Source: Patescibacteria group bacterium (GTDB lineage Bacteria; Patescibacteriota; Minisyncoccia; Phycocordibacterales; UBA918). From it: a stretch of 64,000 bases of DNA. Position numbers and translations under genes: made by a program. Shown here piece after piece: positions 8,779-63,563 of this stretch; within the stretch, counting starts at the first letter, position 1, and the number at the start of each line of letters is the position of its first letter. The notes under the pieces were generated by a model. It saw only the letters and a list, made by a program, of their open reading frames with translations, did no database searches and was not told the origin of the DNA. The stretch is from contig JAIELQ010000007.1 of the NCBI GenBank assembly GCA_019752815.1, positions 115,728-179,727 of the forward strand. The letters run 5' to 3'.

Positions 8779-8781
8779 TTA

Positions 8782-10045: not shown

Positions 10046-10046
10046 T

Positions 10047-13111: not shown

Positions 13112-13445
13112 AGTGGAACTCCTAAGAATGAACAGAGAGGCACTTTGCCCCGATGTAACAAAAATACGATATTTTACAAAAAAAGCAATATTGCAAATTT
13201 AAAAAACTAACTTCAAGCTAATTGAAATCTTTACTTTATTTATAAAAATTTATGTAAAAAAGTCCTAACATCGTCCCAAACAGCCAGTAAAAAAATTAGG
13301 TTGACCCGGACAGAGTTCTTTTCTTGAGGGTGGTGATTTATTGGTAAAAATATTTTTCACCTTATTTCGTTTAGATTTAAACCCTTGGTTTTATTGCTTT
13401 GTAATTACTAGAAATGTATATGTAGTGTGCTATTATTTTCAAATT

Positions 13446-14417: not shown

Positions 14418-14488
14418 AAGATTAGTCTAAGAAAGTACATAGTACAGAGAATCACTATATCGCCACACTCTTAGTGTTGAGTATGTAA

Positions 14489-14532
14489 AAGCTTCAAGTC
14501 TCGGGAAAGAGAAGTGAAGCTTTTTGTTTTTT
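14489..14532 (+). terminator. Rho-independent terminator
   Basis: AAGCTTCA-(18-nt loop)-TGAAGCTT followed by TTTGTTTTTT. Confidence 0.7.
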
Positions 14533-15031
14533 GTAGTATAAAAAGTCATACCACAGTTATTGGGTGCAGGTTTTAAAGTATAGAAACAATTACAGAACGT
14601 TCATTGGGTTGTATATGAGTGCTGGACAATGTATCTTGCGGGTTATAGTTTTGGTATGACTTAGAGTTATTTTTTTGTTAATTTATTTTTTGCGTTTATG
14701 CTGGTAGTAGTGATCGTGGTTTTTTAAAAAATGATAAATCTTTTTTACTCGTATAGGCTTTGTTTGTGTATAAGTATCTCTAAAAAAAAATCCATCGGGC
14801 TACAATGAGAGGGTACTTGTTTTGGGGGTATCACTTAGGATGCCATAGCTGCTTCACTGTAGCTAAATGACCTTCAGCCGGGAGTTCCGAAACAGGTATG
14901 CTTACGATTCTATATAGGTAATCGGTGTGGAGACCAATTACCGGTATTTATCTTTATGGTAAATAGCTTTTATATACGTCTTTGTACATGTATATGGAGG
15001 CAATGGTAGGCTAATACAACGTAGAGAATAT

Positions 15032-28300: not shown

Positions 28301-28497
28301 CATTGGCAGGCGGCTCAACCCGATTTTCACCATTAGATAGCTATGCGGGACTACAAACCACGCCACAAGAAGTGATGTATAGCTCTCTTCCCGCCGATGA
28401 TGTACATGATATTCTATACAGAGTAAGTGTCACTAACAGTCAACCGGCCGGCACCTACGAAACGGAAATTGTCTATTTGGCAGTGCCGACGTACTAA
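22342..28497 (+). CDS. Giant (2051 aa) membrane-anchored surface protein: BNR/Asp-box beta-propeller region followed by four ~160-aa repeats
   Basis: N-terminal TM. BNR motif YSKTTDGGNSWGG. Four internal repeats each contain [H/N]W[R]..D......[QK][FY][RQK][LV][EQ]Y......C.A...W[T]..[DG] and end [EY][LDA][EF][FY].......[Y]CFR[VM][TV]..G..L..Y.(N)YP. Confidence 0.7.
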   Translation: MGRYPSFFNCVRTHKCVSAFLLLLTIGAQFTFLEFLLPRIAQAAVVTIDATVSLTATEHLFAGSQTVFTTDQIGYKFYVDSSGVCAYSKTTDGGNSWGGAVTVDSKTDCTSIAVWYDRWTPGDAGNNIHISTMNVANATDVIWYNRLDTSSDTLLSGTTPINTVSNSAQVPTYVAGTNEQTISKSTTGVLYIAASDASDSFVIQCSTGCNTTTNWTQAGTNFMDLDNDWNLLMPILGGNMLLINRDISADDIRTRVWNGSTWSGSWTAVDSAAVEGATYDIAMAATQDHSSGDIYLAYAADNDSYTVLDHDVRTAKYVSGSWTSTANIFTNSTRGLTGIAISLDTNLGVIYVAYGLRTTPATATTGNIYYSTSTSAMSSWSAEQGPVNTTPGDLYGIDMNIMSDERIYATWQDPAPDDIFGETIANIAPVTKVSTLGTPATSVSASTSNFYTGGAFLIKESQVSRNVTDITISENGTVDGSGAIKNIKLFYDLDTSAPYDCVSETYSGLETQFGSTDVNGFTGADGVSSFNGLVNITPTQAMCVYTVVDVLDAALSASTLRVFIDNPGSDVLVSGGGLVTPDTPVAFVSGTTINNDTLTQTHYHWRNDNGNETAATSATGGIADTPIPALLQNTPRRLRVQVSNEGSLASPATQFRLEYAEAAPTCAAASGWTDVNATNDAWNMFDSTFVPNGSNTTDISVASGGMVNENTTFLTPNGGQLDTTSQTGPLTLTATNFVELEYSIVASSSAPQGTTYCFRVTSAGTVLPVYSVYPQVTVSADVSVSAIGTQASSAIIPTTNFQVGGTFVFTENVSSRNLTSITITETGSVNGATSLDNIRLRYDLDTTAPYNCASESYAGTETQFGATDTDGFSGPNGSSTFTGSVSLTTTQAVCMYTVFDITSAANNGEDIQIEIANGGNDVVVSAGAVGPTTPVLLAGTTTLSGAILAQTGYHWRTDSGSETTAPSATAGNQNTQLIEHAASSSIRLRLGVSNEGAATSTGAQYQLEYGPKITTCSAVSVWTSVDAANDDWNMFNSVNITDGANTTNIATSTGGVSDGNTTFVTPNGGVKDTSAVTGGITLTSTQFTELEFSITSTGITGSDVVYCFRVTNLGTELNQYDNYAEVRTAPKRDFKVQRGVTNVTGTGVTLTAGVNYTAPQASSSAFVRITNTQMTGAGRNAGGAAQNADDVTAYISNPGNIMTSFTISRPPAAIGNTQVYWEIIEFIGATSTDNEMKVLSAATVGMVSASTSATGTVVTGVTDDTDIVVYITGIENRDIGRNFYYAGAVTAEWDAALNRPVFRRGAGGAIINVSYAVVEYTGINWNIQRVEHTYASSTIIETETITPVNSLARTFIHAQKRINGLGNVNNYGHEVWLSSIGAVSFKLEDAATTPASHTSVVWVIENQQTSAGAMRVQRSNGNTTDGTEPVALSIPIFTPLNTITNASIFGTSRAVGANSNFPIPMAGLSITSTSSYLLWRSEATAALLTYRTEIVEWPINGLAVRQNYYRIYADNNSLLPTDPWPPGPSDLGENTPLSIADQPLGEADRVRLRMSLRVTNANLPVGLYDFKLQYGLRLTSCSAVAGWTDVGAASSSAIWRGYNATGTTNGADLSVNPPIFGDLVLSVSDIAGSYVEENPAPANPFGADPNRDIEYDFQLSHNGAMERSVYCFRMVRGDGTTLDGYLNYPQIRTAGFTPQTQNWRWYDDATNETPTTPLSAETVAPIEIQNDNTLALRVTVGEAKNVRGQNVKFKVQYDENPNFTNPRDVTATSTCTATSTWCYAVGGGADNATITTKVLTDADSCTSSVGEGCGTHNSSGVFVLGDTHEPGANREYAFYLRQVLARTGVVYYFRLYDTLNEVPVVLKSGSVYPSTVAETAKLSLTISGLPSGTTTAGVVTTATSTPSTINFGTIPINTPWYSAHRISVTTNAIDGYRVLSYARQQLLNSYGTAINSVTGTNAAPTSWAVGCQISAPGCIGYHTSDATLAGGSTRFSPLDSYAGLQTTPQEVMYSSLPADDVHDILYRVSVTNSQPAGTYETEIVYLAVPTY

Positions 28498-47672: not shown

Positions 47673-47745
47673 GGGCCCGTAGCTCACTTGGTAGAGCGCC
47701 TCATTTGCACTGAGGAGGCAGGGAGTTCGAATCTTCTCGGGTCCA
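47673..47745 (+). tRNA. tRNA-Ala (anticodon TGC)
   Basis: Cloverleaf: acceptor GGGCCCG/CGGGTCC with a G3:U70 wobble (the Ala identity element). D-arm GCTC-ACTTGGTA-GAGC. Anticodon stem CCTCA/TGAGG with loop TTTGCAC. T-loop TTCGAAT. Discriminator A. CCA not encoded. Confidence 0.9.
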
Positions 47746-49354
47746 CTATACGCAACTTTTCAGGAGTTGCATCAGAAGCTAGGTTGTAAATACACGATAA
47801 AACGGGGTTCGAAAAGCCCTCGTTTTTCGTATATACAAGACCCTCTGGAAAGACTAAGTTTTGGAACCCGCGACGGAACTCTGGTGTTAAATCAAGCCAG
47901 AGACGAGAAATACTTTGTACAGCAACGTTAAAGTACTCCTTTTCAAATTCTGCCTCAAGGAGATCTATCGCGTCTTCGTGCAATGTGATTTTTGTCGTGA
48001 GTAGTTCCAATTCTAGTGCTGCGAGGCGCTCCTTTACCATTTCTGGTGTGTAGAGTCCTGATTCAGCTAACTCGTAGATTTTAAACCGTTTTGCCTTTAC
48101 TTCGTTTACCTTTGATTCTTGATCTACGTATTCTTGTCGTAGCTTACCGAGTAGTTCAGTTTGTCGTAGTGCAATCACAGCATTCATGTACTCAAGTAGA
48201 TCTGGTGATGGTGTGATGCGATTAAGTAGCTGCATGAAATCAGCTTCAAGGGTTGCTTTACGGATTACTTTATTCTTTAGCGGACACCCTTTCTGATAGC
48301 AGTGATAGCTGGGATAGTAATTGCCACTGCGACCACGAGACGAACTAGCGGTCATTTGCTGATCACAGACACTACAGCGAACTAGCCGACGGAGTGGAAA
48401 GTCCTCGTTGTCTCGATTTTTGATGATTTTCTTATTGCTTCGTTTACCATCGCGCACTGCAATAATTTCATCCAGTTCTTCCTGAGAGATCATTGGAGTG
48501 TGTTTTCCTGGATAGTATTTGTCGTCATCTGCACAATACAGCTTGCCTGCATAATAATCGAGATAGTGATACAGAATTCGATCAATTAATTGTGGTGAAG
48601 CAAGTATGCCAGCTATTTCAGCAAAGTTGTTTGCCTCGAAGTAGTTACGCATGTCCGTTGCGGTAAATTGTTGCAGGCGATAGCTACGCAGTGCCTCTTG
48701 AACCATAGGAAATAGCACAGGGTGAATTGGGTCAGGAGTAGTCTTTTTGGCACCATTCTTTTTGTTTTGTTTGTTGATATAACCGACAGGAGGCTTATAC
48801 GGATAAATGCCCTCACGAATTCGATCTTGAAGGCCGTTGCGACAACGTAACGCTCGGATGTTGTTATCAAATTCAGCAAAGCCCGCAAGCATTGTTTCCA
48901 TAAGCTTACCCATTGGTCCGTCATTAATAGCCTCAGTGACAGAGTGAAGGGTGGTCCCGTATTTAATGAGAGCGGCTTTAACTGCGAAGTGATCTTCAGT
49001 GTTACGAGCAAAACGGTCAATCTTCCATACTACGAACGCAGCAATCTGTCCCTTATGAACGCGACAGTAATCAATCGCACTTAGTAACTGTTTACGGTCT
49101 GTGGTTTTAGCACTTTCGCCTTTTTCTATGAATGGATCACACGCAAGTATGAGTCCTTGTTTATCAAGATAATCCTTACAAGCGCGCACCTGTGCATCCA
49201 GTGAGGTGCCATCAATTTGTTCTACGTCACTAACACGCACATAGACGATAGCCAGGTTTGTATTAGCTTTGAGTAATTTCTTTGTTTTTTTATTTCGAGT
49301 GTATAACTTAGTTTTCATGATTATTGTGTTTAATAAGCCAAAAGGCGGTCCCAA
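47684..49354 (-). CDS. Large serine recombinase (integrase)
   Basis: N-terminal resolvase catalytic domain (AIVYVRVSDVEQ...S..R), recombinase domain, Zn-ribbon CSVCDQQM..YHCYQKGC, C-terminal coiled-coil. The last 20 codons are the antisense of the tRNA-Ala gene. Start could be the second Met (MKTKLYT, 49318). Confidence 0.8.
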   Translation of the reverse strand: MGPPFGLLNTIIMKTKLYTRNKKTKKLLKANTNLAIVYVRVSDVEQIDGTSLDAQVRACKDYLDKQGLILACDPFIEKGESAKTTDRKQLLSAIDYCRVHKGQIAAFVVWKIDRFARNTEDHFAVKAALIKYGTTLHSVTEAINDGPMGKLMETMLAGFAEFDNNIRALRCRNGLQDRIREGIYPYKPPVGYINKQNKKNGAKKTTPDPIHPVLFPMVQEALRSYRLQQFTATDMRNYFEANNFAEIAGILASPQLIDRILYHYLDYYAGKLYCADDDKYYPGKHTPMISQEELDEIIAVRDGKRSNKKIIKNRDNEDFPLRRLVRCSVCDQQMTASSSRGRSGNYYPSYHCYQKGCPLKNKVIRKATLEADFMQLLNRITPSPDLLEYMNAVIALRQTELLGKLRQEYVDQESKVNEVKAKRFKIYELAESGLYTPEMVKERLAALELELLTTKITLHEDAIDLLEAEFEKEYFNVAVQSISRLWLDLTPEFRRGFQNLVFPEGLVYTKNEGFSNPVLSCIYNLASDATPEKLRIVDPRRFELPASSVQMRRSTK

Positions 49355-49466
49355 CCCGTATCACACCACCTTGGGCAGTATGAATAAGTCAGTGACCGCC
49401 CATTGGACGCGAGGCAATATACCTCTAACTAGTTGATGTGATAAATGATTGATTGAATAATAGCAC

Positions 49467-49928
49467 CTATTTCTTTTTCAGTCGGCTGTGGATTATTTTG
49501 TGCTTATTTTCTAACGATTTAGTAGCCTTGGTTGCTGTTGCACCCTTACTTTTTCGCAGCTTCAATCCAACTTCTTCAATGAAGGATTCTTTTGAGGTGA
49601 CTATATTCGAGCTTAAATGAAGAGTAATTTTATGTTCTCCCAAAGCAGTGAAGAATTGTGTTGATTTAGTTTCATCACGAAATAGTCTGTTATATGAAGT
49701 AACCACTAGTGCACCCAATGTCTCTGTACGGATGAGAGCGAGTAAGTCAACAAGACCAGGCCTCCGTTTATCAATTGAAGAGCCCACATCAATAAAGCAG
49801 TCCACAATAGTTAGGTCGTTTGTCTTACAGTATGCGATACACTCCTTTATCTGATTACTAATATGTTCTATTGGTTTCTCTGAACTGGAGCGAATATATA
49901 GAGCAGTTTTTACTAATTTCTTTTTCAT
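49467..49928 (-). CDS. Small serine recombinase / resolvase catalytic-domain protein
   Basis: ALYIRSSSEK (catalytic Ser context) .. VVTSYNRLFRD. 153 aa, no obvious C-terminal HTH. Confidence 0.5.
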   Translation of the reverse strand: MKKKLVKTALYIRSSSEKPIEHISNQIKECIAYCKTNDLTIVDCFIDVGSSIDKRRPGLVDLLALIRTETLGALVVTSYNRLFRDETKSTQFFTALGEHKITLHLSSNIVTSKESFIEEVGLKLRKSKGATATKATKSLENKHKIIHSRLKKK

Positions 49929-49938
49929 AACAATTTAA

Positions 49939-51735
49939 TTAAAACGGTATACCGTCATCTTCAATGTTTGTAACTACCTCCTCATCGTCATTTTCTTCTT
50001 CACTTACATCAGGTTCGGGACGGTCATCAATGAGTCGAAACATATGTTTACCGTTATCCTTTACCTCAACTGTAATCACTCCATCTTTTTTGAGTTTCGC
50101 TAAGGCAGTGTTCATAGCATGATCACCAATACTAAGTGCGCTTTTAATGTCAGTTCTTGACACCGCCTCGTCGATTCCTGAAAGCATGTGTACAATCTTT
50201 TCGATATTTTCCTGCGTATTTTCCTCCTTTGAAGTATCAACACCCAGATAGGAAAAGTTGATGCTGTTATTTTCACCCATTTGGAAACCAGCTTTGAATG
50301 GCGGTAGTTCTGGCTGAACACGAAGCTTCAACATGCGCACCATAAGATTTTCTGTCCTGCGTTCAATCGCTAAGTGGAAATCAAGTGCGTTAAAGATATC
50401 GGTTGATCCTCGCAGGCTGCCGCTCCCAGCTTTTCGTGTGTGCCCCTGGTCTTTCTTGTGGTGGTGAATAAAGATCACTGAACGCTCTGGAGCAACTAAG
50501 CTTCCTAGAGCTTTCATAACCTGTCGCATCTCTGTAGCGCTATTTTCGTCACGTCCATGCAAACGAACCATTGAGTCCAAGATTATTAGTCGTGGCTTCA
50601 ATGTATCGACATACTTCAACAACTTTGTTCGATGCGCTTCTCGGTCAATCTGCAGTCCTGTATGAGAAAGGAAAACAATATCGTCATGAGCTTCGATATC
50701 CATATTTCGGAATCGTTGTTCAATTATGCGTCGATTATTCTCCTCATCGATCACTAACACTTTACCTGCCGTAGTTCCAAAGTGTCCGAGATACGGAGCC
50801 CCTGTGGCAACAGCTTGTGATAAAGCCAGTGTCATAAACGATTTGTACGAGTTTGATTCTCCCGTAATAGCACCAAGACAACCAAGTGGAATAAGGTCTT
50901 TAGCTACCCATTGAATCGGAGGGAAGTCTTCAGCGTACAGTTCGCGTAGCGTAAATGGCTTTAATACAAATTCTTCAATATCACGCTGTTCAAGTTCGGT
51001 AAGTCGCAACTTTGTAATGCTATTGAATACCTTGCGTAGTTCCACATCTGGTAATGGTTCTGATAGAGCGGTCACGTTCCAAGTAACTACCTCAGGCCAA
51101 GCAACTTTATCCCAACGTTCTGGTCCCATTCGACTAACAATTTCACCTATCTGTTTTGCTGCCGCTTCGTTTCGCATCCCAACAGGAATCAACTCTGATG
51201 TTGCTTCCACAGGCTTATTTTTGAACGTAGAGAGCACTTCAAGCAGTCCTCCTGGGTATATTGGCAAATTAGTAATATCTGGCGCATTTTCACTTGTAAT
51301 CCCATGCCAGCTATATGCTCCTTTACTACTCACGCTTGGAGGCGCAACCACATAGCCGCCATCACCCCGAATATCTGTAAGTTCTGCAATCCGTGTGGCA
51401 TTCTTGGTTACTTTCCCTGGATACTGGTAGTAGAAGTGATATCCGCCACCACCAGTTTTTACAGTAAGCGTTGATGGGTACATTGAGCTATCTCCACCCG
51501 CTTCAACATCTACTACCACTAAGTTTGATATCAGTCCTGTCACAATACCTATCTGAGCCCTCGGAAACTGAGTAAGCCAGGCGTCTACTTCATCATCTGT
51601 CGCAATCCGTTTACTAAATTCACCCCATTTGATGAGTGGCTCTTTATTTTTGTTGAGGGGTATCACTGACCAACCCATTTTCCGATACTTCTTGAATGCT
51701 TCCGCCACTGTTACTGCTGTTACGTAATCGTTCAT
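49939..51735 (-). CDS. Bifunctional primase-polymerase (Prim-Pol) / P-loop helicase replication protein
   Basis: N-terminus WSVIPLNKNKEPLIKWGEF..GIVTG..VVDVE resembles Prim-Pol. Central RecA/DnaB-like P-loop GAITGESNSYKSF and Walker B VLVIDEEN. C-terminal wHTH-like region. Confidence 0.65.
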   Translation of the reverse strand: MNDYVTAVTVAEAFKKYRKMGWSVIPLNKNKEPLIKWGEFSKRIATDDEVDAWLTQFPRAQIGIVTGLISNLVVVDVEAGGDSSMYPSTLTVKTGGGGYHFYYQYPGKVTKNATRIAELTDIRGDGGYVVAPPSVSSKGAYSWHGITSENAPDITNLPIYPGGLLEVLSTFKNKPVEATSELIPVGMRNEAAAKQIGEIVSRMGPERWDKVAWPEVVTWNVTALSEPLPDVELRKVFNSITKLRLTELEQRDIEEFVLKPFTLRELYAEDFPPIQWVAKDLIPLGCLGAITGESNSYKSFMTLALSQAVATGAPYLGHFGTTAGKVLVIDEENNRRIIEQRFRNMDIEAHDDIVFLSHTGLQIDREAHRTKLLKYVDTLKPRLIILDSMVRLHGRDENSATEMRQVMKALGSLVAPERSVIFIHHHKKDQGHTRKAGSGSLRGSTDIFNALDFHLAIERRTENLMVRMLKLRVQPELPPFKAGFQMGENNSINFSYLGVDTSKEENTQENIEKIVHMLSGIDEAVSRTDIKSALSIGDHAMNTALAKLKKDGVITVEVKDNGKHMFRLIDDRPEPDVSEEENDDEEVVTNIEDDGIPF

Positions 51736-54164: not shown

Positions 54165-54249
54165 CATTAAAGCCGTGTTTCCTCAGCGAGACACGGCTTT
54201 TTTTGTTCTAATGCATTAAAAATGCTGTTTAAATGATATTATATTAAGC

Positions 54250-55590
54250 ATGATTAGTGAACTCGACACCATAAAAAATACAGTAACCAAAACTTTTACA
54301 GACTTTGGTATTTCTGTGGATGTAATAAAGGCGTATGAGGGTATCAACCATATTCACCTACATCTGGTCCCAACGAAGCCGGTTCGCATGCATGAGATTA
54401 GGGGTTATCTTGATGACTTACGTTTTGCTCTTGGTCGTCATGTAGTAAAGATAGAGGCACCGGTTAAAAATAAAAATGAAGTGAAGATTAGCGTTCTGAA
54501 AGACAAGCGAGGAACAACAGTTAATTGGGCTACATTACAGGAATGTTTGTTACCAGATAGTTCGCCATTAACTGTACCGTTCGGCATTACTGAAGAAAAT
54601 AAAACGCTTCTAGTTGATATTTTTACACTCCCGCATCTACTCGTTGGTGGCAGAATGATTACCGGCAAAACAAACTTTGTACACGGTCTCATAAATTCAC
54701 TTATATTACGTAACTGTCCAGATATACTTCGGTTGATTTTAGTTGATCCAAAACAAGAAGGTATGCCTTTGTATAAGGGACTGCCACATCTCCTTACGCC
54801 CCCAATCGACAGCTCTGAAAAGACAATACTCGCACTTAAGTGGGCCTGTAAAGAAATGGAACGTCGTTACGACATACTTGAGGCGAGTGACTCAGAGGAC
54901 ATTGCAGACTATCACCAAAAAGTATCTGCAGTAGATAAGCGTTCAGAACCAATGCCATACATTGTGTTCGTCATCGATGAACTGGCCGAAGTCATGGCCG
55001 ATTATGGAGATGAGGCAGAAAAGCTTATGCGAAGACTTGCTGTGATGGCTCGTGGCGCTGGTATTCATATGATCCTCACTACAGCTAGCAACGAACCCCG
55101 GATATTGCGAGGTACACTGCGTGCAAACATTTTTAGTGCTTTAAGCTTCGGTGCTGATTCACAAGCTGCCTCTGAGGCGTTTATATATCAAGCCGGTGCA
55201 GAAGAACTCATAGGCAGAGGAGTCGGTCTGTTTATTTCATTTGATTATACAACTGCAATTGAACTGCAAACTGGTTTAATTGATGAAAAGGAAATTAAGG
55301 AAAACGTTTTGAAGGTAAAACGTCGACACGGAGTGGTGGACGACAATAATATTGATTTAAAGACCCTCGCCGACTACAATCTCACTATTTTTGCCTTTGA
55401 TGAAGAGGATGATTTGTACGAGGACGCCAAGAAAGCGGTGATAGAAGCGGGTAAAGCGTCCACTTCATACATTCAGCGTAAGCTACGTATCGGTTATTCG
55501 CGAGCAGCTAGATTAATCGATCTTCTCGAAGAACGAGGCGTGATCGGTCCAGCTGATGGTGCGTCACCACGAGAAATATTGGAAGATTAA
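54250..55590 (+). CDS. FtsK/SpoIIIE-family DNA translocase (TraB/Tcp-like)
   Basis: Walker A GGRMITGKTN, Walker B VFVIDELAEVM. C-terminal FtsK-gamma-like winged helix YIQRKLRIGYSRAARLIDLLEERGVIGP. Confidence 0.75.
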   Translation: MISELDTIKNTVTKTFTDFGISVDVIKAYEGINHIHLHLVPTKPVRMHEIRGYLDDLRFALGRHVVKIEAPVKNKNEVKISVLKDKRGTTVNWATLQECLLPDSSPLTVPFGITEENKTLLVDIFTLPHLLVGGRMITGKTNFVHGLINSLILRNCPDILRLILVDPKQEGMPLYKGLPHLLTPPIDSSEKTILALKWACKEMERRYDILEASDSEDIADYHQKVSAVDKRSEPMPYIVFVIDELAEVMADYGDEAEKLMRRLAVMARGAGIHMILTTASNEPRILRGTLRANIFSALSFGADSQAASEAFIYQAGAEELIGRGVGLFISFDYTTAIELQTGLIDEKEIKENVLKVKRRHGVVDDNNIDLKTLADYNLTIFAFDEEDDLYEDAKKAVIEAGKASTSYIQRKLRIGYSRAARLIDLLEERGVIGPADGASPREILED

Positions 55591-55598: not shown

Positions 55599-56186
55599 AT
55601 GAATACCAGAATTTCTAGTTACGACGAACAAATACACCGGCACCGATTTGCCTCATGGTGTGCTTCGCGTGCGGCTTCAGTAAGAAATAAATGCATGTTT
55701 TCAGCAAAAACAGGGCAAGAAATTATTGAAGCATCTAAACTTTCGCAAGTTTCATTTGGTTGGGAAAATTTACCTTTTTCAAATCAAAAGGAGTTTGATA
55801 CTTGGCACTCTAGAATGCGCGAGTCTATTTGTCTCACAGCTAGCAAAAATTTAAATGTTAATGGAAAATGCACACACGGTATAGCAGCAAAACTCATTAA
55901 TATTTACTTAAAGACAATTTTTGTTGTGGGTGTACACGGTAAATTGAATTCAAGTCAAACCACACTATTAAATCTTATTCATCCTCCAATTGACCGAACC
56001 TTACTTAATGAATTGGCTAAAAATAACATAGGAGGTTATAGATCCGAATGGAGAAAATTTATAAAAATCGGGTTTAGTAGTTTTACGTCAACGCAATACG
56101 AAAATGTTATTGAACTAGTTATAAAGTCCAATAATGGGAACCCATTATGGATGATTGAAGAGCATTTTAAAGGTTATCAAAAATGA
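55599..56186 (+). CDS. Hypothetical protein
   Basis: 195-aa ORF, no motifs. Confidence 0.4.
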   Translation: MNTRISSYDEQIHRHRFASWCASRAASVRNKCMFSAKTGQEIIEASKLSQVSFGWENLPFSNQKEFDTWHSRMRESICLTASKNLNVNGKCTHGIAAKLINIYLKTIFVVGVHGKLNSSQTTLLNLIHPPIDRTLLNELAKNNIGGYRSEWRKFIKIGFSSFTSTQYENVIELVIKSNNGNPLWMIEEHFKGYQK

Positions 56187-56596
56187 ACATCTATCTGGAC
56201 ATTGACGGCACGATGATTCATGAAGATCATTGGGATACAGAGAATCAAGCCGCTGCAGGTCTAGCTGAGTTCATTATTGCCCTGAGGCCACACAACACAT
56301 ATTGGCTTACAACACACTGCCGAGATGGTAATCCAGAACGACCGCGAGAAATCATGAAGCGTTTTGTACCACCAGAGCTACACGCAGATATAGACCGCAT
56401 CAAGCCAACTGTTTGGGATACGATGAAAACACAAGGTATTGATTGGTCCCGAGACTTTATTTGGTTTGATAATGACATCTCACCGTTTGAATGGGAGAAA
56501 ATTGAACAAGGCACTGAAGGTCAGCAGGCTATTGAAGTGAACTTGAAACTGAACCCGAAGCAATTACTTGAGATAGCGAGGGACGTCCTTAGTTAG
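56183..56596 (+). CDS. Small HAD-superfamily-like protein
   Basis: N-terminal YLDIDGTMI (DxDGT motif I). Only 137 aa. Confidence 0.4.
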   Translation: MNIYLDIDGTMIHEDHWDTENQAAAGLAEFIIALRPHNTYWLTTHCRDGNPERPREIMKRFVPPELHADIDRIKPTVWDTMKTQGIDWSRDFIWFDNDISPFEWEKIEQGTEGQQAIEVNLKLNPKQLLEIARDVLS

Positions 56597-56597
56597 T

Positions 56598-57659
56598 ATG
56601 GAAACTCATCTCCGTTCAAAGCAGTACTACGAAGATCGCTATGATCGAATGACCGTAGAGGACTGCCGACGGAGTGAAAGCTTTTTCTTGAGGAGTACCG
56701 ATGGTGACACTGATAATATTGAAGAAAAACTAAAGGCTGGTATCCGAGAAGTAGCTTGGGAAATCAAGAGAGTTCACCTAACCTTAGACTGGTACAGCAA
56801 GCGCGAATCTACTATCAATGAGTGGATGCAGAAGGACCAAGCGCGGGACACGATGCTTGCTGTAGCACAACCGCCAAGAAACGTATTCTGTTCGACGTGT
56901 GCTGAGAGAATGAATGAGGACAGTCGCACTACTTGGGATAGAGGTAGTAAGGAGCAGGTATTGTTTTTCATGCGCTGCGTCGCTGGTCACCTGCCAATGA
57001 AAGGTGTATTTGAAGATGGTGTCGAGCTGGTTATAGAAGATAAACTTTGTCCAAAATGTAGCGCTGTATTGAACAGCAGTCGCTTACCGAGTAAAAAGGG
57101 TGCGATTAAAACAAAAATATCCTGTTCGGCTTGTAATTTCGAAGAAGTAGATGAATTTGCATTAAGCAGTAATGAACCGGCAGAGGATCCAAGTTATGAG
57201 GCAGACCGACTACGCTTCTGTCTTACTGGTGAAAGTTTAAAGAAGGCACAAGATGAGGCATTTAGGATGGAGCAAATGAGCCGTTTGGTAGAGGGGTGGA
57301 AGCACGAGGAGGAACATCAGGCAGAGTACAAAGCAGTATCCGAACTAGAAAAATTGACTATACCGCAAGTAAAACAGCGAATTAGTGACCTTATCGAAGG
57401 AAAGAACTACTTAAATCTAGTATTTGAAAAACCGAGTATTGAGCGGTACGTCTCACTAGAATTCAGTGTGGAAGAAATGAAAACGGACAATCAGCGGATG
57501 AGCATCAGCAATCTCCAAAAGTTGTTAAAAATGGCATTTGCGGACACGAATTGGCGCCTAATGACTGAGGGTATTAGTTATCGCTTGGGGCTCCTGACAG
57601 GCAGAATTCGGGCTTATGAATCAAAGGAAGATCTACTCAAACTGGTAACGAAAAAGTAG
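56598..57659 (+). CDS. Hypothetical Zn-ribbon-containing protein
   Basis: Cys pairs CSTC .. C..H, CPKC, CSAC. Helical C-terminal half. Confidence 0.4.
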   Translation: METHLRSKQYYEDRYDRMTVEDCRRSESFFLRSTDGDTDNIEEKLKAGIREVAWEIKRVHLTLDWYSKRESTINEWMQKDQARDTMLAVAQPPRNVFCSTCAERMNEDSRTTWDRGSKEQVLFFMRCVAGHLPMKGVFEDGVELVIEDKLCPKCSAVLNSSRLPSKKGAIKTKISCSACNFEEVDEFALSSNEPAEDPSYEADRLRFCLTGESLKKAQDEAFRMEQMSRLVEGWKHEEEHQAEYKAVSELEKLTIPQVKQRISDLIEGKNYLNLVFEKPSIERYVSLEFSVEEMKTDNQRMSISNLQKLLKMAFADTNWRLMTEGISYRLGLLTGRIRAYESKEDLLKLVTKK

Positions 57660-57693
57660 TTATTTGACACATATACTTATAACACAGTGATAA

Positions 57694-58725
57694 TTGAGGA
57701 AACCCATCCAAAATGCTAATCTGTATAGACATATGGCCTTTATTTTTAGTGGTGGTAAACGGTATAATTTAATTCCTTTTGATACTGAAGCGGAGTTTGA
57801 AAAGGCTGTCATCGAACATGCTGTTGAATTGTTTGGTCCCAACACGTTTTACCTTGATGCTAAAAGGTTAATCGCCCGGAGGGGTGAATGGAAAGGTGGT
57901 ATTCCAGATGGTTTTCTCATTGATTTATCAGACCCAACTGAACCGCATCTCTATTTTGTTGAAAACGAACTAGCTTCTCATGATGTGTATAGGCACGTAG
58001 CAGAGCAAGTAGCTCGTTTTTTGGCCATTGCAGTTACCGATGCTATCCAACTACGTGCCATTCTTGCTAATCACATTCGAGCCAACAAAGAATTACTAGC
58101 ACAAATTGAAACGCACATTAAAGAGGCACAATTTCATAACCTTGATAATCTTCTTAATGTACTCACAGAGAAGCCAGCACGTGTTGTCGTAGTGATTGAC
58201 GAAGAGACTGAGGATCTTAACCAAGTACTCTCGGTTTTTCAACGTCGGCCAGACGTGGCAGTGCTGCAGCGATTTACAAGCGACAGTGAGTCTATGTATT
58301 GGTGCCAGCCAATGCGTGATGATGCTGAAGTGCTTGTGACTAATGGACAGACAACAGCCGCTCCAGCACTCCGAGAGTTTGACACAATAGTTTGTCCAGC
58401 ACATAAGGAAGGTTTTGAATCTGCATTCATCAAGCAAGATGCTTGGTGGGCTATCAGACTTTCACAAGAAGCACGCGAACGCATAAATTACTTAGCGATT
58501 TATCAAAAAGCACCCATTGGAGCAGTGACACACGTGGCTGAAATTGAACGGATTGAGCCGTATAAGAACTCCGGCAAGTTTATTGTTTACGTCAAGAATA
58601 AGCGAACAATCGGTCCGATTAAACTTGATGGCGGAGGAAAGCGTGGCATTGCACCGCAAGGACCACGATTTACCACAATAGAAAAGCTCAAGCAAGCAAA
58701 AAAACTAAGTGACCTTTGGAAGTAA
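57694..58725 (+). CDS. Restriction-endonuclease-fold (PD-(D/E)xK-like) protein with a C-terminal beta-barrel-like domain
   Basis: GIPDGFLIDLSDPTEPHLYFVENELASHD resembles the G.PD..-D..-(E/V)E.K core of Mrr/NucS/DUF4263-type nucleases (Lys position not conserved). The C-terminal ~90 aa (VTHVAEIERIEPYKNSGKFIVYVKNKRTIGPIKL) resemble EVE/PUA-like modules. Both assignments are tentative. Confidence 0.4.
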   Translation: MRKPIQNANLYRHMAFIFSGGKRYNLIPFDTEAEFEKAVIEHAVELFGPNTFYLDAKRLIARRGEWKGGIPDGFLIDLSDPTEPHLYFVENELASHDVYRHVAEQVARFLAIAVTDAIQLRAILANHIRANKELLAQIETHIKEAQFHNLDNLLNVLTEKPARVVVVIDEETEDLNQVLSVFQRRPDVAVLQRFTSDSESMYWCQPMRDDAEVLVTNGQTTAAPALREFDTIVCPAHKEGFESAFIKQDAWWAIRLSQEARERINYLAIYQKAPIGAVTHVAEIERIEPYKNSGKFIVYVKNKRTIGPIKLDGGGKRGIAPQGPRFTTIEKLKQAKKLSDLWK

Positions 58726-58736: not shown

Positions 58737-60632
58737 ATGAAAGAGCAAAACATCACAAAAAACATCACCTCTCCGCAAGTTACGCTCGAGGCGCTCCAGC
58801 GTGATTTTGCGCATTGTTTTGATAAGGATGGGGATTTTGACATTGAAAAGTTCAAACGTGAAATTGCTGGCGCTGAGGTGAATTTTTCTAAGGAAAGCTA
58901 CGGCATGGACTGGCTAGGAAAGAGCTATGCGCGAGTACGAGCTACCGATCCGGCCACTACGTTACTCAAGGAAGATGTTGCTTGGAATAGTAAAGAAGAA
59001 AACAAAAACTCAGAGAATCTCCTCATCAAGGGCGACAACCTCGAGGTCCTCAAGCATTTATCTAACGCCTATCACGAACAGATAAAAATGATTTATATCG
59101 ACCCACCATACAACACGGGTACTGATGGGTTTGTGTACGAAGACGACCGCAAGTTTACTCCAGAAGAATTTGCTGAGTTAGCTGGCGTTGACCTAGAACA
59201 AGCCAAGCGTATTTTGGACTTTGTAGATAGTAAGAGTAACTCGCACAGTGCATGGCTTTCGTTTATGTACCCGCGACTTTATATCGCACGTCAGTTGCTA
59301 AAAGACGATGGGGTAATCTTCGTGAGTATTGATGACAATGAGGTAGCGCAGTTGAAGATTTTAATGAACGAGGTTTTTGGAGAAACAAATTTCATTGCGC
59401 ATTTAATATGGAAAAACAAGAAGGGTGGTGGTAATGATTCAAAATATATAGCTATAGAACATGAATCAATTTTAGTATTTGCTAAATCAAAAAATGATCT
59501 TGAGAGACTATTTCATAGATACACTGATGAATACAAAAAGCGATATAAGGAAGAAGACGAGGACGGTTTATTCTTTTGGGATACTTTTAAACGCAAATCA
59601 GGAAAGCAGTACTATTCAATAAAATGTCCAGATGGTTCCACACTCGAGAAGGATGAGTTTGGTAACCCAATAAGTTGGCTGCGATCAGAATCCACCTTTA
59701 AGAAAGACCTTAAACGAGGTGAAATTAGAATTGTTAAAATTGGAGACCAGTGGTCAGTACAGTTCAAGCAAAGACTTCCTGAAGGAAAAAAGCCGCGGAG
59801 CATCTTAGATTCTTTTGGAACTACTAGTGACGGTTCAGATGAGTGTTTTGACTTATTTAAAAAACACATTTTTAGTAACCCAAAGCCGACTAGCCTGATC
59901 TCTCATATGTTAGATATCGTTTCTGAGTCAAACGACATTATCCTTGACTTCTTTGGGGGCTCTGGCACTACTGCTGATGCAGTAATGCGACTCAATACAG
60001 AAGATAGCGGGAGTCGAAAATTTTTAGTTGTACAAATCAGTGAAAAAATTGACCCAATAAAAAATAAAGTTGCATACGATTTTGTAAAAAGCGAACTTAA
60101 AATCAAAGAACCGAATATCTTTGACATTACCAAAGAACGACTTGTACGCGCAGCTAAAAAAATAAAAGAAGAACATAAAGATAGTGAACATATCGCTAGC
60201 GTTGATTTTGGCTTCAAAATATTTGAAACCGTACCTCAATGGGATGGGTATGTCGATGAGCCAACGGAATACGATAACAATCTAAAAATATTTGATGTAG
60301 CAAAGTTAAAAGACAACGATATCGCGACACTCCTCACCACTTGGAAAACTTACGATAGCATCCCACTCACGACATCACTTACAGAGGTTGATCTTGGAGG
60401 ATACACAGGCTACTACAACGATAATAAGTTGTACCTTGTTCATGCTGGTTTTACTGCAAAGCACCTCACTGCGTTGCTGAAGATGATCGATACAGACACC
60501 ACATTCAGTCCTGCAACAATCATTATCTTCGGGTATCACTTTGACAGTGCTCGTATGCGTGAACTTGCTGAGAACGTAAAGAGCTACGCAAACAAGAAAA
60601 GTATCGATATCGAGTGCATCACACGCTACTAG
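58737..60632 (+). CDS. Type III restriction-modification system methyltransferase (Mod)
   Basis: DPPY motif IYIDPPYNTG precedes FxGxG motif LDFFGGSGTTADAV (beta-class N6/N4 MTase order). Central target-recognition region. Start placed at MKEQNITKN to avoid overlap. Confidence 0.8.
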   Translation: MKEQNITKNITSPQVTLEALQRDFAHCFDKDGDFDIEKFKREIAGAEVNFSKESYGMDWLGKSYARVRATDPATTLLKEDVAWNSKEENKNSENLLIKGDNLEVLKHLSNAYHEQIKMIYIDPPYNTGTDGFVYEDDRKFTPEEFAELAGVDLEQAKRILDFVDSKSNSHSAWLSFMYPRLYIARQLLKDDGVIFVSIDDNEVAQLKILMNEVFGETNFIAHLIWKNKKGGGNDSKYIAIEHESILVFAKSKNDLERLFHRYTDEYKKRYKEEDEDGLFFWDTFKRKSGKQYYSIKCPDGSTLEKDEFGNPISWLRSESTFKKDLKRGEIRIVKIGDQWSVQFKQRLPEGKKPRSILDSFGTTSDGSDECFDLFKKHIFSNPKPTSLISHMLDIVSESNDIILDFFGGSGTTADAVMRLNTEDSGSRKFLVVQISEKIDPIKNKVAYDFVKSELKIKEPNIFDITKERLVRAAKKIKEEHKDSEHIASVDFGFKIFETVPQWDGYVDEPTEYDNNLKIFDVAKLKDNDIATLLTTWKTYDSIPLTTSLTEVDLGGYTGYYNDNKLYLVHAGFTAKHLTALLKMIDTDTTFSPATIIIFGYHFDSARMRELAENVKSYANKKSIDIECITRY

Positions 60633-60638: not shown

Positions 60639-63563
60639 ATGGCAGGCTTTAATTTTGAGAAAAATCTAGAACATCAATCACACGCTGTGGCAGCGACAGT
60701 GGGGGTATTTGATGGTGTAGCTGTGGAGCAAGCAATTGGTGTATCAGCTCAGTTTGCAAACCCACGCTTTACTGCCACATCACATGAAATAGCAAATAAT
60801 GTCGCGGCTATGCGGACACGTTTTGCTGTATCTGATGGCACGGTTGACGGCACCAGCACCATTATCGATATCATGATGGAGACAGGTACCGGTAAGACGT
60901 ATACGTACACCAAGACTATGTTCGAAATGAACAAACTCTTTGGTATCTTTAAATTTGTGATTGTGGTCCCGACACTGCCGATTAAAGCCGGTACTATTAA
61001 CTTTTTACGCTCACAGAGCACTCGAGAGCACTTCAAAGAACAGTACGGTAAGCAACTGCAGCTTCATATCGTCGAGAGTCAAAAATCTGGCAAAAGTAAA
61101 AAATCAGTCATTCCGACAGCAGTACAGAGTTTTGTGGGTGCCGGTAGCTACGAACGCAATCATATTCAAGTGCTCGTTATTAATGCTGGTATGGTCAACT
61201 CGGACACTATGCAGAAGCGCTTTGATACGAGTCTCTTTGACCAACACGCAGTGCCATTTGATGCTATAGCTGCAACGCGGCCAATCATGATTATTGATGA
61301 ACCGCATAAGTTTGCTAAAGACAATAAAACTTGGAGTAATCTTGAGCGTATGCGTCCACAGTACACCATACGCTACGGTGCTACCTTCCCAGAGACGGAA
61401 CTAAAGAAGAAAAACTCACTCGGCAAAACGGTGAAAGTGTCAGTTAAGGATTATCATAATTTGGTCTATACCCTCACTGCTGTTGATTCTTTTAATAAGA
61501 ACCTCGTGAAGGGCGTGATCGGTCACGTAGCAGAGTTTGAAGCAGGAAGGAATGCACTTGTAAAACTCATTTCGCTTACTGGGACAGAGGCTAAATTTGA
61601 ACTGACTGAGGGTAACAGAAAGTCTACTCGTACCCTAGGAAAGAAAGACACTCTCTCCAAAGTGCATGTAGCGATGGAAGGACTTACCATTGAAAACATG
61701 AATAAGTCGTGTGTAGTGCTCTCAAACGGACTCGAACTCAAGAAAGGCGACAAGCTAAATCCATACTCATATGCTGAAACACTACAAGAGTCGATGATCA
61801 AAAAAGCAGTGAAGAATCATTTTGAGTTGGAATATGACTTGCTCCAGCGTGATACACGTATCAAGCCACTGACACTCTTTTTCATTGATAATATTGATGA
61901 GTATCGTGGTAAAGATGGCTACATAAGGAAAACTGTTGAAAAACATATTAAAGCGGAAGCAAAGCGTCTTTTAACCCAATCATGTACGCCTGCATACAAA
62001 ACTTTTCTCGAGGCAACTCTAACCAGTATTTCTGATTCACACGGCGGTTATTTCTCACAAGATAATACCGATAGTGACGAAAAAATAGAAAAGGAAGTTA
62101 ACGAGATCCTTCACGACAAGGAGGAAATTCTTCGTATTGACAATACTCGTCGTTTCATTTTTTCAAAGTGGACTCTGCGCGAAGGCTGGGACAATCCAAA
62201 CGTATTTCAGATATGCAAGCTCCGCAGTAGTGGCTCGGATATTTCAAAACTGCAGGAAGTAGGTCGTGGTTTGCGTCTACCTGTTAATGAGTACGGAAAT
62301 CGGGAGAAGGACGAGCAGTTCTTCCTCCACTATTTTGTCGACTTTACAGAAAATGATTTTGTAAATCAATTAGTCGCTGAAATTAATAAAAAATCTGGTG
62401 CAATATCTCGTGCTGCTGTGTATGAACGACTAACTGACGAGATGGTCGCACAAATAGTAGAGAAATACAGTGTTACTGAAGAATCACTTCTTGAGACGCT
62501 CGATAAAAACAACGTAATTACTCGTAGCAATCAATTCAAAGATGGAGGACTTGCTTATATTCAATCTAACTATAGCCTCATCTTTGAAGGTGTAGACAGC
62601 AACAAGATTCGTAAAGCGAACGATGTGAAGAAGCGTGTGACAGTACGAACAGAGAAGTACACAGCCCTTCAAGAGCTCTGGGAAAAACTGAATGAAAAAG
62701 TAATATTGGAGTACAAGATTGACGATGAAGAAAAATTTAAGACGCTGTTTGTTAACTTCTTAAAGCAGTCGGCTGCTGCGTTTAAAGCTGATAGTGTTCG
62801 TAGTCGAATAGAACGAGTAGTCATTGAGGATGGGCAAGCAGTACGACAGAGCGAAGTAGGTCTTAAAGATTCTGAACTAACCTCACTCACGACCATGAAT
62901 TATGGTGCATTCTTGCGCCAACTCGGTGAAGCCTTACACATGAACATTGCAACACTGCACGGATCGTTCAAGACAGCAAAAATAAACCCGACGCCGTTCT
63001 TGAACCAGACAACCATCCGAATTATTAAGCAAAAGTTTGATGCGTTCCTTCTATATAACGCGATTGATGCTTTTACCATCGAGTATCAGCGAGTCACCAA
63101 TACAATTCATCCAACCAAGTTCACAAACAAAGAGGGTAAAGTTGTACGTGATGCTGCCTCTGCTGACGTGGGTGTTATGAGTAGCACCGACAGAGTCGCT
63201 CCCAACTACTTCTTTAACGAACTATTTTTTGATAGTGAACTAGAAAAACAGAATATCATCACAAACATCACTGAAGTGCTTGTTTTCACAAAGATTCCGA
63301 AGAACTCAATAAAAATTCCCGTAGCAGGTGGTAAAAGTTACTCCCCAGACTTTGCGTACGTACTTAATTTTAAGGACGGACAAAAAAAGCTCTACTTCAT
63401 AGTTGAAACAAAAAACACAACTGAGGAGGGCTTGCGTGATGAAGAGCGAGCCAAAATTAAACATGCAGAGAAGTTTTTTGGTGGAAAGGTAAAGATTAAG
63501 TTTAAGACGCAATTTGAACAAGACAAAATAGTTGATCTGATACAACAACTTACTGTAAGTTAA
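60639..63563 (+). CDS. Type III restriction enzyme Res subunit (SF2 helicase + PD-(D/E)xK endonuclease)
   Basis: Walker A METGTGKTYT, DEAH-box IIDEPHKF, SF2 motif VI QEVGRGLR. C-terminal SPDFAYVL...IVETKNT nuclease motif. Confidence 0.8.
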   Translation: MAGFNFEKNLEHQSHAVAATVGVFDGVAVEQAIGVSAQFANPRFTATSHEIANNVAAMRTRFAVSDGTVDGTSTIIDIMMETGTGKTYTYTKTMFEMNKLFGIFKFVIVVPTLPIKAGTINFLRSQSTREHFKEQYGKQLQLHIVESQKSGKSKKSVIPTAVQSFVGAGSYERNHIQVLVINAGMVNSDTMQKRFDTSLFDQHAVPFDAIAATRPIMIIDEPHKFAKDNKTWSNLERMRPQYTIRYGATFPETELKKKNSLGKTVKVSVKDYHNLVYTLTAVDSFNKNLVKGVIGHVAEFEAGRNALVKLISLTGTEAKFELTEGNRKSTRTLGKKDTLSKVHVAMEGLTIENMNKSCVVLSNGLELKKGDKLNPYSYAETLQESMIKKAVKNHFELEYDLLQRDTRIKPLTLFFIDNIDEYRGKDGYIRKTVEKHIKAEAKRLLTQSCTPAYKTFLEATLTSISDSHGGYFSQDNTDSDEKIEKEVNEILHDKEEILRIDNTRRFIFSKWTLREGWDNPNVFQICKLRSSGSDISKLQEVGRGLRLPVNEYGNREKDEQFFLHYFVDFTENDFVNQLVAEINKKSGAISRAAVYERLTDEMVAQIVEKYSVTEESLLETLDKNNVITRSNQFKDGGLAYIQSNYSLIFEGVDSNKIRKANDVKKRVTVRTEKYTALQELWEKLNEKVILEYKIDDEEKFKTLFVNFLKQSAAAFKADSVRSRIERVVIEDGQAVRQSEVGLKDSELTSLTTMNYGAFLRQLGEALHMNIATLHGSFKTAKINPTPFLNQTTIRIIKQKFDAFLLYNAIDAFTIEYQRVTNTIHPTKFTNKEGKVVRDAASADVGVMSSTDRVAPNYFFNELFFDSELEKQNIITNITEVLVFTKIPKNSIKIPVAGGKSYSPDFAYVLNFKDGQKKLYFIVETKNTTEEGLRDEERAKIKHAEKFFGGKVKIKFKTQFEQDKIVDLIQQLTVS

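Follow-up and report, generated by a model that had tools for sequence, protein, structure and literature searches.

Several of the described modification-dependent endonucleases carry a domain of the PUA superfamily. VcaM4I and TspA15I have an EVE-HNH architecture and YenY4I is composed of EVE-DUF3427-PD-(D/E)XK (Lutz et al. 2019, PMC6765204; PMC7897488), and the genes of such PUA-nuclease enzymes are mostly not located beside methyltransferases (Lutz et al. 2019, PMC6765204). PvuRts1I and AbaSI, which depend on 5hmC and glucosyl-5hmC, have an N-terminal PD-(D/E)XK nuclease followed by a C-terminal SRA-like reader of the PUA superfamily (PMC12707154). Stand-alone EVE and ASCH proteins are found with Type I R-M systems, where the loci have been proposed to restrict both unmodified and modified DNA, the mark of the methyltransferase itself being proposed to go unrecognised by the reader (Bell et al. 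2020, PMC7641849).

The locus described here encodes a protein, O4, which combines a nuclease domain and a PUA-like domain, directly beside a Type III R-M system. We favour, with a confidence slightly better than even, the reading that O4 and the Type III genes mod and res form a defence module in which O4 would be a modification-dependent nuclease, that the upstream genes O2 and O3 are a pair from the FtsK gene set of the surrounding mobile element, and that O1 is unrelated.

The locus and its genes

The genes are part of a mobile element integrated at a tRNA-Ala gene in a Patescibacteria genome, and the window is the whole stretch of 64,000 nucleotides that was analysed. As described in an earlier note on this DNA, four ORFs on the plus strand are located between an FtsK-like translocase upstream and Type III mod and res genes downstream. 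The features are as follows.

47673..51735, left end of the element: tRNA-Ala(tgc), large serine recombinase, small resolvase and PrimPol-AAA_25 replication protein, with all three proteins encoded on the minus strand
54250..55590, plus strand, FtsK/SpoIIIE-like DNA translocase (Pfam FtsK_SpoIIIE, FtsK_gamma, FtsK_alpha)
55599..56186, plus strand, O1, 195 aa, with conserved HxH...W, AAKLINIYLK and HPPID
56183..56596, plus strand, O2, predicted capless HAD-type phosphatase, 137 aa (D6xD8, T43, K82, D96)
56598..57659, plus strand, O3, zinc-ribbon protein, 353 aa, with a helical hairpin, two zinc-ribbon modules and a C-terminal alpha/beta domain
57733..58725, plus strand, O4, predicted modification-sensing restriction nuclease, 330 aa, with a PD-(D/E)xK N-domain and a PUA-like C-domain
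58737..60632, plus strand, Type III methyltransferase Mod (Pfam N6_N4_Mtase 4.8e-42, T3RM_EcoP15I_C 1.6e-32; PADLOC MTase_III 4e-202)
60639..63563, plus strand, Type III Res with helicase and endonuclease domain (Pfam ResIII, RE_endonuc; PADLOC REase_III 1070 bits)

O4 had been called from TTG 57694 (343 aa), but judging from 190 homologues and the NCBI record K2P47_03330 (hypothetical protein, Patescibacteria group bacterium), which all start at ATG 57733, the latter is almost certainly the true start. This places O4 73 nt downstream of O3. O1 and O2 overlap by 4 nt (ATGA), and O2 and O3 are spaced by 1 nt. The FtsK stop is found 8 nt before the start of O1, and the Mod ATG at 58737 is 11 nt past the O4 stop (58725), with an alternative TTG at 58716 overlapping O4. 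The FtsK-like translocase is a backbone gene of the element, and the variable cargo starts after it.

The promoter and terminator scan of the region gave a number of sites not above that of shuffled sequence; the single strong terminator is located at 54169-54200, upstream of FtsK. From FtsK to res the genes lie on one strand, spaced by short gaps, and the scan placed no terminator in between, so O1 to O4 could be co-expressed. A TTGACA-19 nt-GATAAT pattern spotted by eye in the gap between O3 and O4 was discounted, the spacer being too long. No match was obtained when the region was compared by megablast with E. coli genomes, phages and plasmids.

Many homologues were found for each of O1 to O4, which are therefore all real genes, and the motifs pointed out in the earlier note are conserved in the respective families (DxDGT in O2, the zinc-ribbon cysteines in O3 and PD...ExE in O4). 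The four proteins have no significant match in Pfam, PADLOC, PHROGs or NCBIfam, in agreement with the statement that no named system matches; the PADLOC-DB v2 screen gave zero matches at E <= 0.1, and neither sequence nor profile searches against the PDB yielded anything meaningful for any of the four.

Predicted domains of O4

The N-terminal domain of O4 (about residues 1-195) has the PD-(D/E)xK core at the residues proposed before, with E19/E23, P58-D59, E77-N78-E79 and Q92...F96, and its core folds as alpha-beta-beta-beta-alpha-beta, which is the arrangement of the PD-(D/E)xK superfamily. In 40 of 40 aligned O4 sequences, E19/E23 of helix 1, D59 of strand 2, E77/E79 of strand 3 and Q92/F96 of the next helix are invariant, and these residues sit on the canonical elements of the nuclease fold. 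The third motif position is the invariant glutamate E79 in place of the lysine of (D/E)xK, making catalysis by O4 plausible but not certain. The same change is present in the active enzyme BamHI (E113). The structural matches of the N-domain are DNA nucleases and restriction enzymes.

The C-terminal segment, already suspected to be EVE/PUA-like, is a PUA-like domain of the ASCH/YTH/EVE kind (about residues 215-330, with W238-W239, R242 and Y257). Its pseudo-barrel beta fold matches solved ASCH, EVE and YTH structures and also VcaM4I, the PUA-like assignment being at the fold level only. ZmASCH, an ASCH domain protein according to its deposition and a ribonuclease of single-stranded RNA, comes out as best match together with YTH domains of eukaryotes that bind m6A-RNA. 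The C-domain matches none of the named Pfam families ASCH, EVE or YTH at E <= 0.1, and a PDB search with the O4 family profile at E <= 10 retrieved no PUA-like chain.

The C-domain is also found on other proteins, being fused to Mrr_cat (4e-23), to RAMA (5.7e-11 and 2.8e-13) and to GIY-YIG, which is weak in Pfam but is reflected in the PGAP name "GIY-YIG nuclease family protein" on two plasmids. The putative sensor is shuffled among nuclease types (O4-type nuclease, Mrr_cat, GIY-YIG and RAMA), which is the modular architecture of Type IV enzymes. Stand-alone GIY-YIG and Mrr nucleases encoded on plasmids carry the C-domain without R-M partners.

Genomic context and proposed function of O4

The O4 family spans bacteria and archaea, including Patescibacteria, and no homologue was found in IMG/VR or in 50,697 phage genomes. 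O4 is located directly before mod in the window and in four other loci (L026, L048, L051, L052), with the order O4-mod-res conserved in L048, L051 and L052, and directly after res in three (L008, L013, L018). The distance to mod or res is 11-35 nt in both gene orders, and Type I and IIG genes also adjoin O4. Among 131 neighbour proteins from 37 loci, the Pfam matches include ResIII (7), N6_N4_Mtase (6), Eco57I (6), N6_Mtase (5), HsdM_N (3) and GmrSD_N (2), and the PADLOC matches among O4 neighbours include MTase_III (6), MTase_I (5) and MTase_II (6); all methyltransferase families reaching these counts belong to the amino class. A large ORF with a (D/N/S)PP(Y/F/W) motif lies at most two genes from O4 in 14 of the 37 loci (about 38%), in many of them immediately adjacent, and the other 23 (about 60%) show no methyltransferase motif within this distance, some members being clearly alone (L049/L050). 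Some relatives are found near toxin-antitoxin genes. The defence context that the earlier note had assigned to all four genes is supported for O4, which occurs in restriction and defence neighbourhoods in many phyla.

In the mechanism we propose, the pocket of the C-terminal PUA-like domain would bind a flipped-out modified base. This binding would either license the nuclease at the N terminus, a PD-(D/E)xK domain with a BamHI-like D...ExE metal site, or bring it into position to cut the DNA. With sensor and nuclease in one protein, O4 would be a modification-dependent restriction nuclease similar to Type IV enzymes. The methyltransferases beside O4 are of the N6-adenine/N4-cytosine class, so the m6A made by them is probably not its target, and a cytosine or thymine (hyper)modification of phage DNA is more likely. 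Phages with modified DNA that evades the Type III enzyme would in this case be caught by O4, which would probably be an unnamed Type IV-like enzyme cutting modified phage DNA and complementing the Type III system.

The published PUA-nuclease enzymes are mostly encoded away from methyltransferases, so the frequent adjacency of O4 to them could indicate a different relationship to R-M systems. O4 might be an accessory subunit of the adjacent system, with the PUA-like domain reading the m6A or m4C left by the neighbouring methyltransferase as a "self" mark and either restraining the nuclease or modulating Res. The short distance to mod or res, kept in two gene orders, beside very divergent Type III systems and also beside Type I and IIG genes, would fit such a role, as would the amino-class methyltransferase neighbours, given that YTH-like folds read m6A. 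O4 is also 89-93% identical between loci where Mod, changing its specificity, is 63-65% identical. On the other side, O4 is far more conserved than its R-M partners without a sign of co-evolution, being 48-73% identical where the neighbouring Res proteins are 22-29% identical or only locally alignable. Together with the many homologues lacking a nearby methyltransferase and the C-domain on plasmid nucleases without R-M partners, this makes an accessory subunit an unlikely explanation, though it fares best among the alternatives. Slightly less likely still is the reading in which O4 is a third R-M component that reads host m6A/m4C independent of the sequence context and has its nuclease controlled by whether the "self" mark is present or absent. 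If true, a sequence-independent methyl-mark partner would be common to Type I, II and III systems, and the element would carry a three-gene O4-Mod-Res unit instead of a classical two-gene Type III system.

ZmASCH and YTH domains are RNA binders, opening the possibility that the ligand of O4 is RNA. The domain would then bind modified or single-stranded RNA for cleavage by the nuclease, in an abortive-infection or toxin-like manner, and the toxin-antitoxin genes near some relatives would be in line with this. We consider this improbable, as the N-domain resembles DNA nucleases and restriction enzymes, the partners of the C-module (Mrr_cat, GIY-YIG and RAMA) are typical of DNA restriction, and DNA R-M genes dominate the neighbourhood of O4.

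O1, O2 and O3

The O1 family comprises 54 homologues, the alignment of which provides the conserved motifs listed above, and O1 has no Pfam or PDB match. A match to REase-ARP (E 0.066 only) was rejected, being sub-threshold and non-recurrent in the family. The contexts of O1 relatives in L144-L146 and L149 have no genes in common with the window, and one relative (P0243) shares 63% identity with O1. O1 is an unrelated, solitary accessory gene without recurrent neighbours.

The O2 family has 335 representatives. HAD motifs I-IV are kept, with D6, D8, G9, T43/T44, K82 and D96 (near-)invariant in 51 sequences; four of the 51 match HAD_SAK_2 (PF18143; best 4.4e-30) and five are fused to FtsK_gamma. 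In the Pfam search, O2 of the window is itself below the threshold of the HAD_SAK_2 model, and on its conserved motifs it belongs to the HAD phosphatase superfamily, being a distant relative of this family.

O3 has a long helical hairpin followed by two zinc-ribbon modules (C98/C101/C127 and C151/C154/C176/C179) and a conserved C-terminal alpha/beta domain (TNWRLM...GR.RAYE), and eight zinc-ribbon cysteines are conserved in the family. O3 also gave a match of E 0.028 to a Lar-like restriction-alleviation family and one to the ZPR1 zinc finger, which were set aside as sub-threshold, confined to the zinc ribbon or non-recurrent. O3 is a common gene of Patescibacteria mobile elements and has no link to O4. 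O3 directly follows O2 in L053 and L056-L058. In L059, which has the same left-end backbone as the element in the window, O2 is found one gene upstream of O3, an ADP-ribosylglycohydrolase gene lying in between. FtsK is upstream of O2/O3 in L055, L056 and L059. O2 and O3 travel with the FtsK and serine-recombinase backbone and are a conserved pair of the element's FtsK-associated gene set.

In the earlier note, O1 to O4 had been taken as a candidate operon for defence or anti-defence in which the HAD protein could serve the nuclease as a nucleotide-phosphatase partner, a view to be given up if the genes were not conserved as a block. Other genomes do not have them as a block: homologues of O1, O2 and O3 are absent from 52 loci around O4 homologues (L001-L052, some duplicate places included), O4 homologues are absent from 89 O3 loci, and none of the other loci examined has O4 together with O1, O2 or O3. 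The closest O4 relatives retain O4-mod-res with other genes in place of O1-O3; in a 93%-identical relative (L051), a Mrr_cat/Zn-ribbon gene and a DUF2779 gene replace them upstream of an intact O4-mod-res. The HAD assignment of O2 holds, with its catalytic motifs and the relatives matching HAD_SAK_2, but its proposed partnership with O4 finds no support in block conservation, and through fusion and adjacency the O2 domain is tied to FtsK instead. The common strand, the overlapping or abutting junctions and the uninterrupted stretch from FtsK to res, as well as the frequent R-M neighbours of the O3 family (7 methyltransferases at 28 loci) and its weak Lar-like match, would favour a four-gene operon, which is nevertheless largely refuted and very improbable. 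From these sequence comparisons, the interval is a variable cargo segment holding three separate things and not one four-gene system. The comparative context divided four abutting genes into three unrelated units, illustrating that close spacing of genes on a mobile element is no evidence of a system.

The least credible explanation is that O4 serves the element in recombination or repair, either as an XisH-like excision controller working with the serine recombinase, which we rejected on genomic context, or as a NucS-like repair nuclease, because most O4 homologues are found near R-M genes with no recombinase nearby, the similarity is at the fold level only (7-18% identity), and XisH and NucS have no PUA-like domain.

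If O4 is active as a modification-dependent nuclease, as we favour, it would represent a widespread restriction-nuclease family without a name, a Pfam model or a PADLOC model, present also in Patescibacteria, about whose phage defences little is known. Its D...ExE site would be unusual, its reader domain would be one that is also joined to three or more other modules of nuclease or DNA-binding type, and the family would explain the extra conserved gene so frequent at Type III and other R-M loci. Modification-dependent enzymes are furthermore useful for mapping modified bases.

Comparison with known systems

VcaM4I, TspA15I and YenY4I are likewise modular, with a PUA-like reader and a nuclease, and act alone as single polypeptides. 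Their sensor is N-terminal and their nuclease C-terminal, whereas O4 has the opposite order. They are mostly not encoded near methyltransferases, whereas about 38% of the O4 family are found within two genes of one, and O4 shows no detectable sequence similarity to them. PvuRts1I and AbaSI have the same domain order and logic as O4; however, their reader is SRA-like and that of O4 is ASCH/YTH/EVE-like, the O4 nuclease is NucS/XisH-like with an ExE motif, and there is no sequence match. The resemblance to NucS/EndoMS and XisH is limited to the fold of the nuclease, and these proteins lack the PUA-like domain and belong to other biology (mismatch repair and element excision).

The stand-alone EVE/ASCH proteins resemble O4 in placing a PUA-like reader beside a classical R-M system, but they are separate small proteins, mostly from archaea, that borrow HsdR, whereas O4 has its own nuclease; they are Type I-associated, whereas O4 is here most often next to Type III. 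For O2, the nearest family is HAD_SAK_2, the HAD domain found in the "Swiss Army Knife" proteins of RNA repair, from which O2 differs in being a stand-alone protein of 137 aa tied to FtsK/FtsK-gamma and not to RNA-repair ligases or kinases. Beside these systems, O4 is best read as a new family.

Genomic setting of the four ORFs

The ORFs O1 to O4 are located where the earlier note placed them, each with the length described there, the start of O4 aside. The features of the region are as follows:

47673-47746, + strand, tRNA-Ala(tgc)
55599-56186, + strand, O1, 195 aa
56183-56596, + strand, O2, 137 aa
56598-57659, + strand, O3, 353 aa
57694-58725, + strand, O4, 343 aa from a TTG, 330 aa from the ATG at 57733

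O1 shares 4 nt with O2, and a single nucleotide separates O2 from O3. The true start of O4 is almost certainly the ATG at 57733, giving a 330-aa product, and this start is used by the identical NCBI protein (hypothetical protein K2P47_03330) and by essentially all homologues. The gap between O3 and O4 is thus 73 nt, while 11 nt lie between the O4 stop and the start of mod. The NCBI model for O1 (K2P47_03315, 163 aa) starts 32 codons downstream of the ORF start, leaving out 55599-55694 and thereby the family-invariant H15 and W20 and the nearly invariant H13, which makes the 195-aa start the better one.

The left part of the window carries the ordinary chromosomal genes tgt, uvrB, uvrA, uvrC, and ddl; a 2051-aa ORF is also found on this chromosomal side, at 22342-28497. 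Directly after tRNA-Ala(tgc), the - strand encodes a large serine recombinase, a small resolvase, and a PrimPol-AAA_25 replication protein, beyond which come several small ORFs and then FtsK. The recombinase gene, taken as the longest ORF, abuts and overlaps the tRNA gene, and the stretch 47673-49354 probably marks both the left end of the element and the site where it integrated; the right end lies outside the window. The O1-O4 region is thus part of an integrated mobile element, in line with the assumption of the earlier note. Searches of E. coli genomes, phages, and plasmids gave no near match to the region's DNA.

Pfam identifies the protein preceding O1-O4 as a gamma-domain-containing FtsK/SpoIIIE translocase. 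On the 3' side, Pfam and PADLOC identify the two Type III proteins, Mod (N6_N4_Mtase with the EcoP15I C-domain) and Res. A strong hairpin resembling an intrinsic terminator, with a 13-bp stem followed by a T-run, is located at 54169-54200, between a 189-aa ORF and FtsK. It is the sole convincing hairpin of this kind from 52.7 kb to the window end, so that FtsK through res could be a single long transcript.

O4 is a predicted nuclease with a PUA-like domain

O4 does not match any Pfam, PADLOC, PHROG, or NCBIfam model or any PDB sequence. Its family is tight, with 190 matches of 325-334 aa that are about 50% identical, and is spread over Patescibacteria, Woesearchaeota, Methanoperedenaceae, Nitrospira, Gammaproteobacteria, Desulfobacterales, Bacteroidota, and Clostridia. 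The PD-(D/E)xK nuclease core (GIPDGFLIDL...FVENELASHD) and the C-terminal EVE/PUA-like segment proposed from the sequence both hold at the fold level. The invariant residues fit the canonical nuclease elements: helix 1 carries E19/E23, P58-D59 fall at strand 2, strand 3 carries E77-N78-E79, and the helix that follows carries Q92...F96. The usual lysine of the motif is a glutamate in O4. BamHI has the same substitution, and the predicted site is therefore plausibly active. A 35%-identical homologue is encoded by Clostridium sp. MD294 strain ASF356 (NZ_CP097810.1, about 905,930-906,847), a cultured strain with a complete genome sequence, which could supply an experimentally tractable family member.

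The O4-type C-domain is also found elsewhere, at 41-61% identity, joined to differing partners:

L046, C-domain with a GIY-YIG nuclease alone
L043, C-domain with a GIY-YIG nuclease and a RAMA domain
L044, C-domain with an Mrr_cat nuclease (Pfam, 4e-23)
L045 and L047, C-domain with an O4-type nuclease carrying a RAMA insert

Two RefSeq plasmids, of Tolypothrix PCC 7712 and Ca. Magnetococcus massalia, encode the C-domain in proteins annotated by PGAP as "GIY-YIG nuclease family protein". One putative sensor shuffled among nuclease types is a hallmark of modification-dependent restriction enzymes (PMC6765204, PMC12191111). The L044 fusion (2002-3387) has an in-frame stop codon within the C-domain, which could mean a pseudogene or a misassembly.

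Restriction-modification genes recur around O4

We analyzed the nearest two ORFs on each side of O4 at 37 distinct loci, comprising 131 proteins. The Pfam matches include ResIII (7), N6_N4_Mtase (6), Eco57I (6), N6_Mtase (5), HsdM_N (3), HSDR_N_2 (3), and GmrSD_N (2), and PADLOC indicates MTase_III (6), MTase_I (5), and MTase_II (6). A large ORF with amino-methyltransferase motif IV lies within two genes of O4 at 14 of the 37 loci. This recurrence supports the proposed defence setting. Searches of IMG/VR and of 50,697 phage genomes gave no O4 homologue.

The main rival explanation is that O4 acts as part of the restriction-modification (R-M) system, reading the mark made by the neighbouring methyltransferase. 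The tight adjacency to R-M genes speaks for it: res lies directly 5' of O4 in Desulfobacterales, Nitrospira, and one gammaproteobacterium, with gaps of 28-35 nt, and mod directly 3' in the window, a Bacteroidota MAG, and the three closest relatives. However, across the Type III-adjacent loci O4 is 48-73% identical, whereas Mod is about 21-41% identical and the adjacent Res 22-29% identical or only locally alignable, indicating that O4 has repeatedly come together, in either gene order, with highly divergent Type III systems. By these identities, O4 does not co-evolve with the adjacent systems, and many family members stand alone, both of which argue against the rival. Among close relatives (L048, L051, and L052), Res is 90-92% and O4 89-93% identical to the window proteins but Mod (58737-60632) only 63-65%, which suggests a swapped target-recognition region in Mod and hence a change of specificity.

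The four ORFs are not conserved as a block

In tblastn searches, no homologue of O1, O2, or O3 was found in any O4 locus, and 89 O3 loci contain no O4 homologue. The reading of O1-O4 as one four-gene defence system is thus not retained; what stands of it is O4 and the defence setting, and the inference for O4 is unaffected. L051, with a 93%-identical O4, keeps the O4-mod-res unit intact, but there the genes that separate O4 from the FtsK-gamma gene encode an Mrr_cat/Zn-ribbon protein and a DUF2779 protein. L048 and L052 start just 5' of O4 and show only the retention of O4-mod-res.

O3 lies directly 3' of O2 at four loci (L053, L056, L057, and L058). L059, a sister element, shares the whole backbone of recombinases, PrimPol, small ORFs, FtsK, O2, and O3. 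In its stretch 7038-16046, an ADP-ribosylglycohydrolase gene separates O2 from O3, and O3 is followed by genes for a small FtsK-gamma protein, a protein with OGFr_N, one with DUF2779, and an SF1 helicase of 1432 aa. The stretch 3' of FtsK is a hot-spot for cargo.

O1 has 54 homologues, with the conserved motifs HxH...W, AAKLINIYLK, and HPPID; family and structure searches gave no match. O1 homologues are solitary in unrelated variable regions.

The O2 family keeps HAD motifs I-IV (D6xD8, T43, K82, and D96), with a HAD_SAK_2 match in 4 of 51 relatives (best, 4.4e-30). Of the same 51 relatives (alignment A5), 5 have the HAD domain fused to an FtsK gamma domain and 1 to an FtsK motor domain, which agrees with the FtsK-O2 gene adjacency and hints at a role in DNA transfer. 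From these motifs and fusions, O2 is a predicted capless HAD phosphatase that is functionally tied to the translocase rather than to O4; its substrate may be either a nucleotide or the end of a nucleic acid.

With at least 510 loci, the O3 family is abundant in metagenomes of Patescibacteria, and it occurs on 9 IMG/VR contigs. The O3 model (pLDDT 87.5) combines a long helical hairpin with two zinc-ribbon modules and a small C-domain of alpha/beta type, and gave no informative structural match. Its neighbours (110 proteins at 28 loci) are typical mobile-element cargo, including 7 methyltransferases, 3 ResIII, 3 DUF2779, and HNH, ParB, and UvrD-like proteins, and 13 of 80 loci have a serine-recombinase relative within 8 kb. 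Among the loci examined, O3 has no fixed partner except O2 in closer relatives. A role in anti-restriction or transfer is a guess.

Proposed function of O4 and comparison with known systems

We propose that O4 is a stand-alone Type IV-like nuclease, in which the PUA-like domain would bind a modified base flipped out of the helix, with the PD-(D/E)xK domain cutting nearby. As the trigger, m6A would be less likely than a (hyper)modification of cytosine or thymine, because amino-class (N6-adenine/N4-cytosine) methyltransferases are tolerated in the neighbourhood of O4. Its place beside a Type III enzyme would let O4 catch phages whose modified DNA escapes classical restriction, and Bell et al. 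(PMC7641849) proposed the same logic for EVE/ASCH proteins encoded beside Type I systems. An RNA target is a possibility, given that ASCH and YTH domains bind RNA.

The closest known systems to this putative modification-dependent nuclease are the PUA-nuclease enzymes VcaM4I, TspA15I, and YenY4I and, likewise, PvuRts1I/AbaSI, all with the same logic. O4 differs from VcaM4I, TspA15I, and YenY4I in the domain order, in a different, unassigned PUA-like subtype, and in frequently adjoining methyltransferases, the opposite of what Lutz et al. (PMC6765204) described for such enzymes. We file O4 as a putative, unnamed addition to the known modification-dependent nucleases, with predicted modification-dependent cleavage and a predicted defence phenotype.
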